From Candidatus Iainarchaeum sp. (GTDB lineage Archaea; Iainarchaeota; Iainarchaeia; Iainarchaeales; JAGVWC01), in NCBI GenBank assembly GCA_018304465.1, contig JAGVWC010000008.1, positions 1 to 64,000 of the forward strand: 64,000 bases of DNA, read 5' to 3'. How positions within the stretch are numbered: the stretch's first letter is position 1; the number at the start of each line of letters is the position of its first letter. Below are positions 25,192 through 31,763 of the stretch, piece by piece. A program made the translations under genes and the position numbers. Below the pieces are notes generated by a model. The model had not been told where the DNA came from. It did no database searches and was given only the letters and a program-made list of their open reading frames with translations.

Positions 25192-25905
25192 TTATCGAAT
25201 TCTTCGGCGAGTTTTTTTCGCCACCCACTTGCGCTGCGGGATTGGCACAGAACCTTGGATACCCGCTTTTTTTCGCATCGCTTGAAGATTACGCCATAGC
25301 CTATCGGCTTCCGCCTGAGTAGGCGCAGTTTCGATTTCTCGCCTGAGTGCTGCAAGGTCTTGTTGGAATGTTCGCGGTCGCCAGCCTCGGCGAATCCGAT
25401 CTAAGAGAAAAATGTCTTCGGGATTTGCATGAATTAATTGAACGAGTTCTTTTCGTCCACTCGCAGTCGTATGCATTACTACCCACAAATATTGTTCCAA
25501 GTTTATTTTTTCTCGAATTGGCTTTTTCCATGGATTCTTTTTTAGTTTATCAACGTACGCTGTAAACTCTTCAAAATATCCTTTGCTAATAAAGTCAATA
25601 CCCGAAAATGGCTTGTCTGGCTTGTCTATTCCCGTATGAACCGCCAAGTGTGTTCTTGGAAAACGAGCTTCGCATAATTTCAAGAACTCAATGGGAGTCG
25701 GAACACCGCGCCCTTTTTCATTCTCAACACTGACATCAGTAATAATCGCGTTGAACGGTTTTCCCTCAATCGCTTTAAGCGCCTTGCTCACAGAACCGAC
25801 CGCAACAACATCAAAACCCCACATCTTCAAGAGGGAAGAACATGCGTTCCGTTGCCCTTCCGCATCCTCAATCATCAAAATTCTTGGTTTAGGTTCTTTT
25901 GGCAT
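25192..25905 (-). CDS. orphan response-regulator receiver protein (CheY-like REC) with an uncharacterised C-terminal domain
   Basis: MPKEPKPRILMIEDAEG...IITDVS...VHTG...ISKG matches the acidic pocket, phospho-Asp, Thr and Lys positions of REC domains. The C-terminal ~110 aa are unassigned. No kinase lies nearby. Confidence 0.6.
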   Translation of the reverse strand: MPKEPKPRILMIEDAEGQRNACSSLLKMWGFDVVAVGSVSKALKAIEGKPFNAIITDVSVENEKGRGVPTPIEFLKLCEARFPRTHLAVHTGIDKPDKPFSGIDFISKGYFEEFTAYVDKLKKNPWKKPIREKINLEQYLWVVMHTTASGRKELVQLIHANPEDIFLLDRIRRGWRPRTFQQDLAALRREIETAPTQAEADRLWRNLQAMRKKAGIQGSVPIPQRKWVAKKTRRRIR

Positions 25906-25953
25906 GTAAACAACAGGTGCAGGTGATTTAATGGATTTTCGGTTAAGCCTCCT

Positions 25954-26358
25954 GTGGTCCCCAACGCCAAAGGACTGCGTCCGGGCAAAAACACGCGCGT
26001 ATACGCGCAAGTCATTGATCCTTCGAAACTCATGGCCCGATCATCCGTCGTGATTTGCGGAGGCGGTCACTCCACGATCATGGACGCGATCAGCATGGGA
26101 AAACCCATCATCAGCGTTCCCGACATGTTTCATTTCGAACAAGAATCCAACGCCAACCAATTGCAGGCATTGGGATTTGGAACCCGCATCGATTACAACA
26201 CCTCCGAACCCATTATCGAAGAACTGATTTTGGATCATTCGACCAACAGGGCAATTCACAAACGAATGGAAACCATGGCAAAATTGGCCAAAGAAATCGA
26301 CGGAGGAAAAAGAATGGTCGAACTGGCGAGTGAATTAAAACCGAAAAAAAAGAAATGA
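25954..26358 (+). pseudogene. C-terminal fragment of a GT-B glycosyltransferase (MurG/GT28/MGT-like); the N-terminal domain is missing
   Basis: SSVVICGGGHSTIMDAISMGKPIISVP...EQESNANQLQALGFG is the C-terminal nucleotide-sugar-binding half of GT-B enzymes. The region upstream is occupied by the opposite-strand REC gene. Confidence 0.55.
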
Positions 26359-26368
26359 AAAAAAAGAA

Positions 26369-28012
26369 TTACGGCGATGTTTTTTGCTCGGATGCTTTTT
26401 CGGGCAACGCCGGAGGATTCGATCTTTCCAGTTGCGCCTGAGCACGGGTCAATAATTCTTCTTTCGAATTCATCTTATCGAGCACGTAAAAATACGCGTT
26501 CATGACCTCGTCCAGATCGGTTCTGCGTTTCGTGCGATGCGACGCGATTTCCTTGAAATACAAGTGCACGATTTGGTGGCTTGCTTCCTCGTTCGAAAGC
26601 GCGTTCACGGCCGAAACACCCATTCGCTGCACGACCTGGGCCAACGCATAAAAGTACGCGTTCACCACGTCGTCAAGCGAGAGACCGCGTTTGAATCCGA
26701 CGTGCGAAATTTCTCCGAAAAACGTTTCGAGTACGAGATGCGCGACGCGTTCCGGCGGAACTTCCCCGGACGAGCGAACCGACGGCGGAACCCGCATGGC
26801 TTTTTGCAATGCGCGGGACTTTTCCTCAAACGACTGATGAGCCAATGCCAAATCGCCTTTTAATTTGACGATTTCGCGCTCCAATTCCTGGCGCAAACGC
26901 GTGCTTTCTTCGGCCGCGCGCTGTTGTTCGGCCAGCAACTCGAGTTCGCGTTTTTGGCGTTCCGACGTCAAATCCGACTCATGCCTTTGCTGTAAAGACT
27001 CGACCATGGAATGGTGCTCCAAGCGCTGTTTTTCGGTTTCAAACCGCAAGCGCTGCAAAGCCCCTTCTTTTTCCACGACTTGTTTTTCAAGCTCCGGATC
27101 CCGGACCTTAACCTGTTCCACTTTGGTTTTGTATTGAATAACCGGTTTGGTTTTCACGATTCGTTTCACGCGCGTAACGATCTTGGGTTTGGACGGTACG
27201 CGTTTCACAATGGTTTTGGTAACGGTTCGCGTCTTGGTCGGAAGCTTTCCTTTTTCCACCTGTTTAACCTGTTTCCACAACCGAACGGCCTGCGGAAACG
27301 TTTTTCCATCGTTTAATTGCCGACGCATGAACAAGTTGTACTCGTTAAGCTGTTTTTTCGGGGTTTTTTTCTTTGAAAGCGAGTCCAGTTCTTTTTGAAG
27401 CCGGGTCAAATGCGCTTGCTGTTTTTTGTCCGCAACCTTGACGGTTTTCACCACGGTCTTGGTCCGGGTTTTAACGAGGAGTTTTCCTCCTTCGACTTTT
27501 CGCAATCGCTTCCAGAGATTGACCGCCTGATTGAAGGTTTTTCCTTCGTTTAGTTGACGGCGCATAAAAAGATTGTATTCGTTCAATTGTTTTTTCGGGG
27601 TCTTGGTTTTTCGCTGGCTTGCAAGGCTTTCTTTTAGTTTTTGCAAATCCGCGTTAATCTTGGTGGTTTTGGCTGCGACTTTCGCGACTTTGTCAGCGGT
27701 CGCGGTGGTCGCCTTTGAAACTTTGGTGACGCGCTTGGACGTCGCTTGGGTTTTCTTGGAAACATTCGAGACACGCTTTGCGGTCGAATCGGTTTTTTTC
27801 GCTTCTTGTTTCACTTCTTTTCGAAGCGCCTTGACTTGTTTTCGAATGCGTTTGGTTGGCGTCACTTTTTTGACGGTTCGCGCGACTTGCGCGGTTGAAA
27901 CCTTCACCGGTCGTTTGGACACGGCTTTAGACACCGGTTTTTTTGCGACCGGTTTTGAAACGGTTTTTTTTGCTGATTTTTTTCCTTTTGAATTCTTTGC
28001 AGCCACCTGCAA
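26369..28012 (-). CDS. lysine-rich putative DNA/chromatin-binding protein: H1-like basic tail, two tandem HMG-box-like half motifs, coiled coil, two C-terminal NAYFY repeats
   Basis: N-terminus is KK(P)V(A/S)K-type repeats. TPKKQLNEYNLFMRRQLNEGKTFNQAVNLWKRL is duplicated as TPKKQLNEYNLFMRRQLNDGKTFPQAVRLWKQV. A central coiled coil runs EKQRLEHH...ELEREIVKLKGDL. The C-terminal repeats are LDDVVNAYFYALAQVV and LDEVMNAYFYVLDKM. Confidence 0.6.
   Translation of the reverse strand: MQVAAKNSKGKKSAKKTVSKPVAKKPVSKAVSKRPVKVSTAQVARTVKKVTPTKRIRKQVKALRKEVKQEAKKTDSTAKRVSNVSKKTQATSKRVTKVSKATTATADKVAKVAAKTTKINADLQKLKESLASQRKTKTPKKQLNEYNLFMRRQLNEGKTFNQAVNLWKRLRKVEGGKLLVKTRTKTVVKTVKVADKKQQAHLTRLQKELDSLSKKKTPKKQLNEYNLFMRRQLNDGKTFPQAVRLWKQVKQVEKGKLPTKTRTVTKTIVKRVPSKPKIVTRVKRIVKTKPVIQYKTKVEQVKVRDPELEKQVVEKEGALQRLRFETEKQRLEHHSMVESLQQRHESDLTSERQKRELELLAEQQRAAEESTRLRQELEREIVKLKGDLALAHQSFEEKSRALQKAMRVPPSVRSSGEVPPERVAHLVLETFFGEISHVGFKRGLSLDDVVNAYFYALAQVVQRMGVSAVNALSNEEASHQIVHLYFKEIASHRTKRRTDLDEVMNAYFYVLDKMNSKEELLTRAQAQLERSNPPALPEKASEQKTSP
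27266..27601 (-). repeat. internal tandem duplication (2 x ~33-70 aa unit) within the lysine-rich protein gene
   Basis: Protein residues 138-170 and 217-249 are about 85% identical. The DNA copies are about 75% identical, so the duplication is not recent. Confidence 0.6.
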
Positions 28013-28098
28013 ACCCCCATTAACTTAGTATAATTAACCAATTATATTTCAGTAGGGGGAGCTTAAAAAACTATTGGATAGCCCATACCCCCGTTTGT

Positions 28099-28926
28099 CT
28101 ACTCAATCCGCTGAACAATTAAAACCCAGTTCGGAGCCAAGTCAACCACACGCCGGTGAGACGAGACCGGAAAAAAACGAGCCTTAAACCCTTGTTTTTC
28201 AAAGGCACGCTCAATTCCCTTCATTTCTTGTTCCACGGACAACGTGCGGTTTCGAACGGGCTGCTCCGATAACCCGCCCGAAATAGTTGCCAGTCGAGTC
28301 TCCGAACGCGAAGAAAAATGAAACCCCATCAATAACAATCCATTCCGATTCAACGAATAGACAAATTTTAGAATCACGTTTTTTCTCAAGGCCCTCAGCG
28401 TGTACGACGTGGAACCAAAAACCGAAATCACGGCGTCCACCCGTTCTTTTGGCAGAAAAAATTCCGCTTTCGAAGAAATTACGTCGTCAATTTCTCTTTC
28501 TCGCTTCAATTCACGCAAAGAATCCAAATGATGCGCCGCCAAACCAATCACGTGGGATTTGATGCCCTGTTTGGTCAAGGCTTTTTTCAAATCAGAAAGC
28601 GCAAACCCTTCACCAGGACCATCCTCAAGCACTCGAAAAGGACGATGCAAAGAAGCGATTTTTGAAAAAGCCGCCGCAATATCAAGTGATCTTCGCGCAT
28701 AAAAAAAACGTTTTAACGCATTCCCGAAAAAAAGATTATACTCCGACAATCCGCGAGAAGCTTCCCAACCGCGATGAGGGTATTCTCGCGCAAAAAGTTC
28801 CATGCGCTTAAATCGCCGCTCCAATCCTTTGCGCAACAAAGGACGACGACGCAACGCGGATTTAATCCGCCGGACATACGTTTGCGCACCGCGGACCGGT
28901 TTTGGAATGGCACGTCTTTTCAGCAT
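28099..28926 (-). CDS. Arg-rich N-terminus plus possible Rossmann-fold SAM methyltransferase-like domain
   Basis: N-terminal MLKRRAIPKPVRGAQTYVRRIKSALRRRPLLRKGLERRFKR. FRVLEDGPGEGFAL resembles MTase motif I and DAVISVFG resembles motif IV. The fold call is weak. Confidence 0.35.
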   Translation of the reverse strand: MLKRRAIPKPVRGAQTYVRRIKSALRRRPLLRKGLERRFKRMELFAREYPHRGWEASRGLSEYNLFFGNALKRFFYARRSLDIAAAFSKIASLHRPFRVLEDGPGEGFALSDLKKALTKQGIKSHVIGLAAHHLDSLRELKREREIDDVISSKAEFFLPKERVDAVISVFGSTSYTLRALRKNVILKFVYSLNRNGLLLMGFHFSSRSETRLATISGGLSEQPVRNRTLSVEQEMKGIERAFEKQGFKARFFPVSSHRRVVDLAPNWVLIVQRIE

Positions 28927-28938
28927 TTTACAAACGCC

Positions 28939-30057
28939 TTACAATCGCTCCACTTTTTCCTTCGATACCACGAGATTCACGCGGCGCGTCCGACCCTTCA
29001 CATCGCCCATGGTTTCCTCAGCATCCACCAAACCCAATTTGGACAACTTGGACAGCATCGTACGAAACATCCGCTCCGCCAGTGGGCTTGCGACCTCGGT
29101 TTGATAAAACAAAAACAAATCTCCACTATTAACATCCGGATGCCGGGCCACGGTTTTTAACAACGCGGCTTCCGCCAATGACAAATACGCCAAGCGTTTT
29201 TCCAGCGACACCTTGTCGACTTGACCAAACACCGCTTTGCAGTGCTCCGGCAACAACTTCTCCGCGTTTTCCTTTTCGGCCACGCGCCCCGCGGCCAACA
29301 AGGATTCGATTCCCACGCGACAATCCCCGCCGAGTTTTCCGGAATGACCCGCGATAATATCGATCGATTCCGAAACCACGATTCCCGGAAAAAACGCTTT
29401 CTCGGCGCGTTCCGAAAAAATCTGTTTTAACTGCTGCGGAGAATACCCCGCAAACTCGATCCGAACCGGAGAAAGCGAACTTTTCACCCGATCATCAAGG
29501 CTTGCCAACAACTCCGCGTCGTTTGAAACGATAATCACGCCGACCCCGATCCCGTGTTTTTCAGGCAAACGCAACAAATCATACAGCAATTTCGAACCAT
29601 CGTCTCCCGACAACAACTGGTCCGCTTCATCCAGCACGACGATCGGCAAAATTTTTCTTTTCTGCAGAACCGAAACCCATTCCGCCAAGGTTTCATCGCT
29701 TCCGACGCCGCGACGCGGAATAATCGCGCCAAACCGGGTTGCCAATTCCGACAACACGGCATGCCGCGAATTCGCTTCAAAACAATTAATCACGGTTCCT
29801 TTGGCTTTCCCCGAAAACTCCTCGAGTTGCTTGACCACAAACCGAACACTTGCGGTTTTTCCCGTTCCGGGCGGGCCGAACACGAACACGCTTTTGGGTC
29901 GTTTTCCTTCGGACGCGGGTCGCAACGCAAACACCAGTTCATCCAGTTCTTTTTCACGATGCGGCAAATTGTCCGGCAAAAACTCGGGATACAACACCGC
30001 CTCGTCTTTAAACAACTGATTAAGCTTTTCCCGCTCGGCAAACAAGTTCGAAGGCAT
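28939..30057 (-). CDS. cdc6: Orc1/Cdc6 replication initiator
   Basis: MPSNLFAEREKLNQLFKDEAVLYPEFLPDNLPHREKELDEL...FVFGPPGTGKTAS...VVLDEAD... with a winged-helix C-terminus. Start taken at the internal ATG 30057. Confidence 0.9.
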   Translation of the reverse strand: MPSNLFAEREKLNQLFKDEAVLYPEFLPDNLPHREKELDELVFALRPASEGKRPKSVFVFGPPGTGKTASVRFVVKQLEEFSGKAKGTVINCFEANSRHAVLSELATRFGAIIPRRGVGSDETLAEWVSVLQKRKILPIVVLDEADQLLSGDDGSKLLYDLLRLPEKHGIGVGVIIVSNDAELLASLDDRVKSSLSPVRIEFAGYSPQQLKQIFSERAEKAFFPGIVVSESIDIIAGHSGKLGGDCRVGIESLLAAGRVAEKENAEKLLPEHCKAVFGQVDKVSLEKRLAYLSLAEAALLKTVARHPDVNSGDLFLFYQTEVASPLAERMFRTMLSKLSKLGLVDAEETMGDVKGRTRRVNLVVSKEKVERL

Positions 30058-30111
30058 GCAATTAAAACAAGTCAAAAGCAGTTTAAATCCTTTCCTGAAT
30101 ACAAGAATACC

Positions 30112-30921
30112 GTGACGCAAAAAGAAAAAATCGTGCTCATGATTCCCGCCCACAACGAGGAAAAAACCCTCAAAAACCTGCTTCCAGGCCTGATGGCCCT
30201 AAAGAAGGTGGGCGTCTGCCACGAAGTGGTGGTCGTGAACGATGGCTCCACCGACCACACTGGGAAAGTCGCGCTTTCATTCGGAGCGAAAGTTTTAACG
30301 CTTCCAAAGAATTATGGAAAAGCATATGCATTCTACGAAGGAGCCAAAGTTGCGAAACAAATGAAAGCCACCGTTTTCGTGACACTCGATTCCGACCTGG
30401 AACACGTGACAAAAAGGCAATTGGAAGCGCTGATACGCCCGGTTCTGCGCGGAGACGTGAAGATGAGCGTAGGAACAGTCGTTGACCGAAAAACAATCAA
30501 TGGAATACCCGTACATGACTCCACTATTGTAAGCGGCCAACGTGCGTTCCAAATGCAAGCACTTGAACCCTTACTGATTCACAACCCGAAATGGGAAAAA
30601 TTCTTCGGAATCCACAACGGCCAGTTTTGCTATCGAACAGGATTTGGGCTTGAACGCGCATTAAACCAGCTCCTGGTCGGCCATACGGAGTGGATGTACG
30701 GAGGGTCGACGGGCAAAAAAATTGTGGTCCGAACCGAATTTAATGTCCAGCGCGGCGCGTTACAAATAACTTCAAAAAAGCAGATGGACCGTGAAATGGC
30801 AAGCGTCGATTGGGTAAACAACGCCCGAAAAAATACAGCCCGCATCGTTCGCAGCAAACGAAAGGAAGACCCCGCCGAGGCACGAAAAAGGGTCGCGCGA
30901 TTCAAACGGAGAACAAAGTGA
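30112..30921 (+). CDS. family-2 glycosyltransferase (GT2; dolichyl-phosphate sugar transferase-like)
   Basis: KIVLMIPAHNEEKTLKNLL...VVVNDGSTDHT...TLDSDLEH (DxD). GTG 30112 or ATG 30139 start. The upstream part of track ORF 29554.. is antisense of cdc6. Confidence 0.75.
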   Translation: MTQKEKIVLMIPAHNEEKTLKNLLPGLMALKKVGVCHEVVVVNDGSTDHTGKVALSFGAKVLTLPKNYGKAYAFYEGAKVAKQMKATVFVTLDSDLEHVTKRQLEALIRPVLRGDVKMSVGTVVDRKTINGIPVHDSTIVSGQRAFQMQALEPLLIHNPKWEKFFGIHNGQFCYRTGFGLERALNQLLVGHTEWMYGGSTGKKIVVRTEFNVQRGALQITSKKQMDREMASVDWVNNARKNTARIVRSKRKEDPAEARKRVARFKRRTK

Positions 30922-30926
30922 ATCCG

Positions 30927-31763
30927 ATGATTTCCAAAATAACTTTTGCAACCGCCGGAGTACCGATTTCAAGCCCGAAACCCGACACGGTTACAGGCCT
31001 TCAACGCATCAAAGAACTCGGACTCGACGGCATGGAACTCGAATTCGTGCACGGCGTACGCATGGGACGCGAAATGGCCGACCAAATCAACGCCAAAGCA
31101 AAAGAATTAACCCTTGATTTGTCGGTGCACGGACCCTATTACATCAATTTGAACGCAGTGGAACCCGAAAAACAAGCGGCTTCAAAACAACGCATATTCG
31201 ATTCCGCCAAAGTCGGCGCCTGGTGCGGCTGCCGCGCGGTCACGTTTCACCCCGCGTACGTGATGAAAAGCAAACGCGAAGACGTGGCAAAACGCGTGCT
31301 CAAATCATTGTCCGACATTTTGGCGAAAATGGATTCGGAAAAAATCCACATTCAACTCAAACCCGAAACCACGGGAAAAGAAACCCAGTTCGGGTCGCTA
31401 ACCGAACTCCTTTTTCTGCATCACGAAGAACCGCGTTTTTGTCCCAACGTGGATTTTTCGCATCTACACGCGCGCGAAAACGGACGATTCAAGAAAAAAG
31501 AGGATTTTGCCAAAGCCCTGGATGAAATGGAAAAAAACGACCCTAAGCTGTTACATGACCTGCACATGCACGTATCCGGCATCGCATATTCCTCAAAAGG
31601 CGAAAAAAATCACCTCGTACTCGAAGACAAGGCCAACGACTTCAATTACCGATGGCTGCTCGAAACCCTGGCCGAATACGGGGTAGAAGGACGCATCGTC
31701 TGCGAATCCCCCAACATCGAAACCGATGCGCTATTGCTAAAACGGTATTACGAATCGCTTTGA
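30927..31763 (+). CDS. nfo: AP endonuclease family 2 (endonuclease IV-like TIM barrel)
   Basis: SVHGPYYINLNA matches the HxxYLINL signature, with FHPA, DFSHLHA and C-terminal E/H metal ligands in order. The alternative is a generic sugar-phosphate isomerase-like TIM barrel. Confidence 0.55.
   Translation: MISKITFATAGVPISSPKPDTVTGLQRIKELGLDGMELEFVHGVRMGREMADQINAKAKELTLDLSVHGPYYINLNAVEPEKQAASKQRIFDSAKVGAWCGCRAVTFHPAYVMKSKREDVAKRVLKSLSDILAKMDSEKIHIQLKPETTGKETQFGSLTELLFLHHEEPRFCPNVDFSHLHARENGRFKKKEDFAKALDEMEKNDPKLLHDLHMHVSGIAYSSKGEKNHLVLEDKANDFNYRWLLETLAEYGVEGRIVCESPNIETDALLLKRYYESL

Follow-up and report, generated by a model that had tools for sequence, protein, structure and literature searches.

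The subject of this study is an open reading frame (ORF) at positions 26369-28012, minus strand, of a 64,000-nucleotide stretch of DNA from Candidatus Iainarchaeum sp. (assembly GCA_018304465.1, contig JAGVWC010000008.1, positions 1 to 64,000), the whole of which is termed the window below. In the window, orc1/cdc6 lies one gene upstream of this ORF on the same strand. The product of the ORF, termed the target protein, belongs to an as yet uncharacterised protein family found in DPANN archaea (Iainarchaeota/Diapherotrites, Micrarchaeota). It contains two copies of a short helical unit for which sequence comparison suggests, as the best description, a truncated form with a short loop, either belonging to the YABBY/HMG-box superfamily or closely analogous to it, followed by a C-terminal helical domain here called the NAYFY domain. 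The shorter of its two possible forms is 100% identical to the deposited 'hypothetical protein J4215_01100 [Candidatus Diapherotrites archaeon]' (P0001). The parts of the gene, with lengths in amino acids (aa), are as follows.

26369..28012, minus strand: whole ORF, giving 547 aa if the start is TTG, or 545 aa from the GTG at 28006, two codons further in; basic, pI 10.45, without Cys.
27689..28012, minus strand: basic, K/A/T/V-rich low-complexity tail, residues 1-108.
27608..27688, minus strand: leucine-rich helix alpha0 of the ELxKLKxxLxxLK type, residues 109-135, always ahead of the first unit.
27476..27604, minus strand: YABBY/HMG-like unit 1, residues 137-179, made up of a basic extended segment, helix I, a G-K-T turn and helix II.
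27371..27430, minus strand: second alpha0-type helix, residues 195-214, within a 79-aa internal duplication.
27239..27367, minus strand: YABBY/HMG-like unit 2, residues 216-258.
27113..27238, minus strand: basic repeats in which basic and beta-branched residues alternate (TKTRTVTKTIVKRV, KPKIVTRVKRIVKTKPVIQYKTKV), residues 259-300.
26813..27112, minus strand: E/L/R/Q-rich charged linker, residues 301-400, pI 5.9.
26420..26755, minus strand: C-terminal NAYFY domain, residues 420-531, consisting of two helical hairpins of ~45 aa and one further helix.

The original prediction, made from the DNA letters without database searches, had described residues 1-125 as a low-complexity stretch rich in K/A/T/V, and a count of the composition bore this out (K 26%, V 14%, A 14%, T 12%). 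The net charge is approximately +36 across residues 1-135 and approximately +73 across residues 1-300, and the only two Trp residues of the protein fall one in each repeat unit. The further suggestion that the tail is like that of linker histone H1 or of Chlamydia Hc1/Hc2 held for composition only. Those tails are Lys/Ala-rich, basic and of low complexity, as is the tail of the target protein, but no Pfam linker-histone or Hc1 match was obtained at E <= 1, the target protein has no winged-helix globular domain, and its tail is rich in Val and Thr also. Within helix alpha0 the residue L126 is invariant across 24 homologues, and a helix of the alpha0 type likewise stands ahead of the unit in small virus-like proteins. 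Repeats of the KPKI/RTRT type (KPKI(V/K)xRTRT, TKTVVKTVKV) follow the units in variable number, including a shorter copy after unit 1 at residues 180-192 (27437-27475, minus strand), and are present in homologues P0004, P0009, P0017 and P0062; they gave no match to any known motif among those that could be tested. The E/L/R/Q-rich segment at residues 301-400 is found in the closest relatives only and is missing from most homologues. The coiled coil that had been proposed for residues 290-400 was not confirmed, a crude heptad periodicity test giving no support for it.

The two near-identical copies of a motif that had first drawn attention to the protein are real and were found to be longer than described. 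The repeat core, KTPKKQLNEYNLFMRRQLN(E/D)GKTF.QAV.LWK, occupies residues 137-170 and 216-249, and the alignable region extends over residues 123-190 and 202-272 (BLOSUM62 score 230). At the DNA level the duplication is visible as direct repeats, D1 and D2, with a spacing of 237 nt. Comparison of the 34 core codons gave 13 that are identical, 16 with synonymous-only differences and 5 with residue changes; synonymous sites are saturated and the protein sequence is conserved. Since 16 of the 34 codons differ synonymously only, and 5 by a change of residue, the duplication must be old and both copies under purifying selection. It is neither an assembly artefact nor a chance low-complexity match.

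The unit is 33-43 aa in length. Across 215 non-redundant copies its conserved positions are Y (98%), N (86%), F (89%), G (99%), T/S (91%), A (90%) and W (100%), and the Y/F/W positions, whose conservation had been chosen beforehand as the point on which the motif could fall, are thus clearly retained at 89-100%. The same three positions align with the aromatic positions of YABBY and HMG domains, that is, with the aromatic residue at the start of helix I and the Trp in helix II. In many homologues the second copy reads KRRPSAYNQFIGSQMRLGKTWSQAVALWK, bearing the PSAYNxF signature of YABBY/HMG-box domains. The predicted structure of the unit region has helices at residues 109-135, 145-155 (helix I) and 160-174 (helix II), with a predicted local distance difference test (pLDDT) value of 81.7.

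Remote similarity was explored by profile-profile comparison (hhalign) with five YABBY and five HMG-box domains, each confirmed by Pfam (E 1e-23 to 1e-37). The unit matched YABBY at 94.6% (score 35.6, E 7e-8) over 32 columns, with a single 10-residue deletion in the inter-helix loop. By comparison, 200 shuffles of the template columns gave a mean score of 8.4 (standard deviation 2.2, maximum 20.9), shuffling of the query reached a maximum of 15.2, and the template in reverse gave 8.6. As a positive control, YABBY was compared with the HMG box, which gave only 69-70% (score 27.4, E 4.5e-5). Short-loop units linked to topoisomerase IA in other proteins, described below, matched the unit at 97.3% (score 48.8, E 1.8e-11) and the canonical HMG box at 90.4% (score 33.4, E 1.4e-6, 49 columns; shuffle maximum 18.6). 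When 33 units were scanned singly against Pfam, YABBY was the family touched most often (9 of 33, best E 0.013, all under the 28.6-bit cut-off), and HMG_box_2 came next among DNA-binding families (3 of 33, best E 0.022, also under the cut-off). The virus-like relative P0063 gave a YABBY match of 27.1 bits. The resemblance to the strand and helices I and II of HMG boxes, with a shortened loop and without helix III, which the original prediction had read from the motif, was shown by the profile comparisons, and the best match was to YABBY, a member of the HMG-box clan.

YABBY domains (PF04690), which belong to plant transcription factors, are, like the unit, helix-loop-helix DNA-binding modules without helix III. 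Both have a [KR]-rich lead, then P-S-A-Y-N-x-F-[IM], then F-x-x-A-x-x-x-W, with Asn after the conserved Tyr, and the PSAYNxF and W signature of the unit coincides with YABBY position by position. The unit differs in that its inter-helix loop is 10 residues shorter and in that it falls under the Pfam gathering score. YABBY proteins have an N-terminal C2C2 zinc finger, which the Cys-free target protein does not; they are plant proteins, whereas the unit is archaeal and occurs in one to three copies within a highly basic multi-domain protein. HMG boxes (HMGB1, NHP6A, SRY/SOX, LEF-1, TFAM) have in common with the unit the N-terminal basic extended segment, the aromatic residue that opens helix I and the invariant Trp of helix II. 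Proteins that carry them are abundant, basic and architectural, and often have several boxes in tandem; the target protein is likewise basic with tandem units. Unlike HMG boxes, the unit has no helix III or L-shape, its helix I and loop are short, and it has Asn at the wedge site. Strictly speaking, the unit does not qualify as an HMG box.

Several observations weigh against a YABBY/HMG-box relationship. The direct comparison of the unit with the HMG box was marginal (17-20%, score 19.7 against a shuffle maximum of 18.9), and the Pfam thresholds for HMG_box and YABBY were reached by none of the 33 units. The whole protein and the isolated repeats gave no HMG-box (PF00505/PF09011) match at E up to 10, and neither the target protein, its isolated repeats nor its C-terminal region matched any Pfam, NCBIfam or PHROGs family at threshold. 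The three-helix, L-shaped HMG fold that had been looked for was not recovered: the predicted unit region lacks helix III and the L-shape, and its predicted template modelling score (pTM) was 0.41. No significant structural match of the unit to HMG boxes was found, the top Foldseek matches, among them the ribbon-helix-helix (RHH) protein Arc repressor, being non-significant (E 7-9), and PDB sequence-profile searches with the unit and with the C-terminal domain returned spurious matches only (polyubiquitin, S100). The Asn that follows the conserved Tyr stands at the site of the intercalating wedge in many HMG boxes, where a hydrophobic residue enters the DNA (NHP6A Met29, an Ile in SRY, a Met in LEF-1). 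The motif has only ~32 alignable residues, and convergence therefore has to be reckoned with.

It could be, then, that the likeness to YABBY and HMG boxes is convergent. The unit would in that case be a small helical hairpin of independent descent, such as an RHH-like or dimerising basic-helix module, with another mode of binding to DNA or to some other ligand. A G-K-T turn between short helices, together with a dimerisation-type alpha0, would also suit a small dimeric DNA binder. This explanation is considered rather unlikely, as the YABBY match stands far above the 200 shuffles, the chain through the topoisomerase IA-linked units reaches canonical HMG boxes, and the signature residues fall on the YABBY positions one by one. 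An RHH assignment of the unit was tried directly and rejected: hhalign comparison with an Arc/Mnt/CopG/NikR alignment gave 0.1% and a score of 6.1, and no Pfam RHH match was found.

The distribution of the unit was examined with a profile of the 33 units, which, among 1.84 billion representative proteins, retrieved 374 at E <= 0.001, of which 70 reached E <= 1e-10. Beyond the full-length DPANN relatives, the carriers were small ORFs, proteins linked to topoisomerase IA, and one eukaryotic HMG protein, the canonical 10-HMG-box protein P0079, which was retrieved at E 3.6e-11. In the topoisomerase IA-linked carriers, topoisomerase-IA C-terminal repeats (Toprim_C_rpt) are followed by three to five units of the form KRPxSGYQxYVSEVMKNGMKMGEAAxxWKxLDxxxQxxYKDKA. 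These have an equally short loop and, in addition, the beginning of an HMG-type helix III (W-K-x-L-D-x-x-x-Q-x-x-Y-K-D-K-A). The proteins concerned are P0040, P0051, P0071, P0085, P0090 and P0147, and their low-complexity Asn/Ser runs suggest a protist origin.

Many carriers of the unit are small ORFs (30-150 aa) on virus-looking contigs, and one further match lies on an IMG/VR contig. In these small ORFs the unit takes the form KRKPSAYNxF..MK.GKTMKEAA..WKK (L010:7001-8011, L011:1276-1740, L054:3001-3084; proteins P0083-P0164). The contigs bear short co-directional genes without Pfam matches and are viral or mobile in look; L011 additionally bears a small Cdc6 winged-helix ORF. A subgroup of ~145-165 aa (P0106, P0129, P0130, P0149, P0150, P0156, P0159, P0162, P0163) has an N-terminal unit and then a Gly-/hydrophobic-rich tail.

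Full-length homologues are confined to a narrow range of sources. Among 5.8 billion proteins searched there were only 26, which measure 300-590 aa and have no Pfam domain; all were from DPANN-type sources, and those named were Diapherotrites, Micrarchaeota and 'ainarchaeum'. A scan of one genome per GTDB species gave 38 loci, all assigned to Iainarchaeum, ainarchaeum, Micrarchaeota or uncultured archaeon. The order of parts is common to all members and runs from a K-rich tail through a leucine-rich helix (ELxKLKxxLxKLK), one to three units, basic KPKI/RTRT repeats and a variable linker to one or two C-terminal modules of 45 aa. The target protein shows the combination by which the family is defined, namely alpha0, a YNxF...W unit and the C-terminal signature YFxExARxGxKRxLxLDExxxAYxYxL, encoded by a gene behind orc1/cdc6.

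The two C-terminal copies of a helical NAYFY repeat, also noted in the original prediction, are real and conserved in homologues. The two modules align locally with a score of 64, and the consensus of the 45-aa module is (D/E)EE.A.R.V..YF.E.AR.GFKR.LSLDE.I.AYFY.L. AlphaFold placed helices at residues 420-438, 446-464, 474-491, 500-514 and 517-531, forming a compact bundle (pLDDT 84.4, pTM 0.79). No structural or sequence relative of the domain was found by profile and structure comparisons. A histone-fold or (HhH)2 reading of the hairpins, prompted by the motif G-x-K-R-x-L-S-L-D-E and by the JGI 'RuvA' label on P0179, was rejected as it found no structural or profile support.

A profile search with the C-terminal domain recovered stand-alone proteins of 86-112 aa. 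One is a 99-aa NAYFY-type protein encoded directly after orc1/cdc6 (L050:4001-4300 and L051:4001-4300). In the other case orc1 is followed by a full family member of 261 aa and then by a stand-alone copy of 96 aa (L052:4001-4291 and L053:4001-4291). Both of the stand-alone copies located hold the slot of the target gene behind orc1, and they are without the basic DNA-binding part save for a short basic N-terminal stretch. It is therefore the C-terminal domain that the linkage to orc1 follows, and the basic YABBY/HMG-like part has the look of a DNA-binding arm that was added or can be lost.

The genes upstream of the target gene in the window are as follows.

28939..30153, minus strand: orc1/cdc6 (TIGR02928, E 5e-76), with a probable start at the ATG at 30057.
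28099..28926, minus strand: Arg-rich gene of 275 aa between orc1 and the target gene, without a Pfam or NCBIfam match.

The original prediction had placed the target gene downstream of orc1/cdc6 and of a methyltransferase-like gene on the same strand; the first of these identifications stood, and the methyltransferase-like label was not confirmed by Pfam or NCBIfam. Relatives of 28099-28926 were found in the closest genome only (two tandem paralogues in L001, one in L002), apart from a weak match in L021, and the gene looks like an insertion, specific to this lineage, between orc1 and the target gene.

Conservation of this arrangement, which had been proposed as a check, was examined by tblastn with the window Orc1 against the 38 species-level loci, 36 of which had enough flank. 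It proved strong: 31 of the 36 informative loci (~86%) have orc1/cdc6 upstream and in the same orientation, at an Orc1 identity to the window protein of only 36-59%. The same arrangement was seen in five of the eight contigs found by exact-protein look-up; among these L002 ends too near the gene to tell. We infer that the target protein binds DNA and may have a role at origins, and incline, by a modest degree, to the interpretation that it is a DNA-binding architectural (chromatin-type) protein functionally coupled to Orc1/Cdc6.

The coupling to Orc1/Cdc6 has several results set against it. Five of the 36 loci are without an orc1 neighbour. A wider neighbourhood is also shared within ~6 kb, comprising AP_endonuc_2, a YchF-type GTPase (MMR_HSR1-TGS), the RFC large subunit and PheRS beta (window 26369-31763; L001, L003, L005-L007, L050-L053); the AP_endonuc_2 gene is upstream of orc1 on the opposite strand and directly adjoins it in several loci. 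As this wider neighbourhood is conserved too, the synteny is weaker as proof of function, and gene order in small, slowly rearranging genomes can last without a functional link. No origin-type or ORB-like (origin recognition box) repeats were found near orc1 in the window, where the spacer upstream of orc1 is only ~80 nt. There was no GC-skew switch near orc1 (~29-30 kb) in the window either: all 2-kb bins of positions 1-64000 have a negative skew, and the cumulative curve declines to -5.0 at a steady pace without ever reversing. The direct repeats D1/D2 were considered as origin-type repeats and dismissed, being simply the internal gene duplication.

The conserved neighbourhood, the origin repeats not seen beside the gene and the five loci without upstream orc1 would also fit a general nucleoid or chromatin packaging protein, that is, an H1/Hc1-like compaction factor with no origin-specific role, the adjacency to orc1 being inherited gene order or co-expression with replication genes. 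The extreme basic charge and low-complexity tail are in keeping with such a protein, as is the variation in the numbers of units and basic repeats among homologues. We regard this as a serious though doubtful candidate, since the adjacency persists in 31 loci at so low an identity of Orc1 and extends even to the minimal stand-alone C-terminal-domain genes, which is hard to square with pure packaging.

If the target protein is indeed an architectural factor coupled to Orc1/Cdc6, its basic tail and basic repeats would neutralise DNA phosphates and so bind electrostatically, and its two units would dock on DNA in a YABBY/HMG-like manner, perhaps, without a hydrophobic wedge, with little intercalative bending. 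Helix alpha0 and the C-terminal bundle might serve for self-association or for binding a partner, the most plausible partner being Orc1/Cdc6 or some other origin factor. In this way the protein could shape or bend the DNA in or near the replication origin, or else package DNA as replication proceeds. A bolder proposal, put forward as speculation and with little expectation that it will hold in full, is that the NAYFY domain is an unrecognised Orc1/Cdc6 partner that in most DPANN lineages gained a short-loop YABBY/HMG-type module and basic tails, making it an initiator-tethered origin-architecture factor. The short-loop unit, common to DPANN archaea, virus-like elements and topoisomerase-IA fusions, would then stand for a branch of the HMG-box/YABBY superfamily in prokaryotes and viruses, and perhaps for its root.

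A role away from DNA, as an RNA- or ribosome-associated protein or as a structural or cytoskeletal basic protein, seems highly improbable. RNA-binding and scaffold proteins also have basic low-complexity tails and helical linkers, but the only remote relatives that could be detected for the unit bind DNA, the unit is fused elsewhere to topoisomerase IA C-terminal repeats, and the neighbourhood of the gene consists mostly of replication and repair genes.

Architectural DNA binding that works together with the initiator or helicase at origins is familiar from bacterial IHF/HU/Fis at oriC and from the AT-hook tail of S. pombe Orc4. In archaea, Sulfolobus UBP is described as a nucleoid protein that is needed at origins and contacts MCM (PMC12141716). 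A functional analogy between the target protein and UBP, IHF/HU/Fis and the Orc4 AT-hook is suggested by the orc1 synteny, and there is no relation of sequence or fold. Unlike the target gene, the UBP gene apparently does not lie beside orc1, as far as that account goes (PMC12141716).

HMG-domain chromatin proteins have been reported on mobile elements of Asgard archaea (bioRxiv 10.1101/2021.07.29.453957). The claim that an HMG-like domain in archaea would be new was accordingly upheld in part: in a 2026 ECOD survey the HMG-box homology group is still given as confined to eukaryotes, but because of the Asgard proteins archaeal or viral HMG domains are not wholly new. The Asgard proteins and the unit are alike in being HMG-type domains within archaeal or viral genetic material, the unit occurring also in small virus-like ORFs. 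As described, the Asgard proteins are set apart by their location on mobile elements, whereas the target family is chromosomal, orc1-linked, of DPANN archaea, and has the additional C-terminal domain. A literature search on HMG-box/YABBY domains in DPANN or other archaea gave no description of the target family. What is new here is the combination of a YABBY/HMG-type module that is divergent and set in a new architecture, a C-terminal domain not yet classified, and a previously undescribed linkage to orc1/cdc6.

HMG-box/YABBY modules are regarded as a eukaryotic invention of chromatin. A conserved but truncated relative in chromosomal DPANN genes and in virus-like elements would, if true, extend the superfamily beyond eukaryotes and give a handle on its origin. 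To our knowledge, chromatin and replication control in DPANN archaea are almost unstudied, and the gene, standing behind orc1/cdc6 in so large a share of the loci at species level, provides a concrete candidate for a factor associated with origins. Its product has two halves, a predicted DNA-binding part and a conserved C-terminal domain that is also found alone in the same slot.

The target gene has its own upstream region, described here together with the ORF at its downstream side.

28013..28098, minus strand: intergenic region of 86 nt, putative promoter.

This spacer had been described as AT-rich, and its GC content is indeed 37% against 48.9% for the window. The TATA-like boxes AAATATAATT and TTAATTATA lie 27 nt and 16 nt, respectively, ahead of the target start, with a GGGGG run just before the start; on these features the spacer would be expected to act as a promoter. 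On the other side of the target gene, at 25954-26358 on the plus strand, lies a 134-aa ORF whose match to a GT28-type glycosyltransferase is limited to the C-terminal part of that enzyme (Glyco_tran_28_C, E 3e-13). Its syntenic counterpart in L001 is 374 aa long, and the ORF may be a truncated gene or a pseudogene. It is overlapped by a response-regulator-like ORF, 25192-26010, on the opposite strand.

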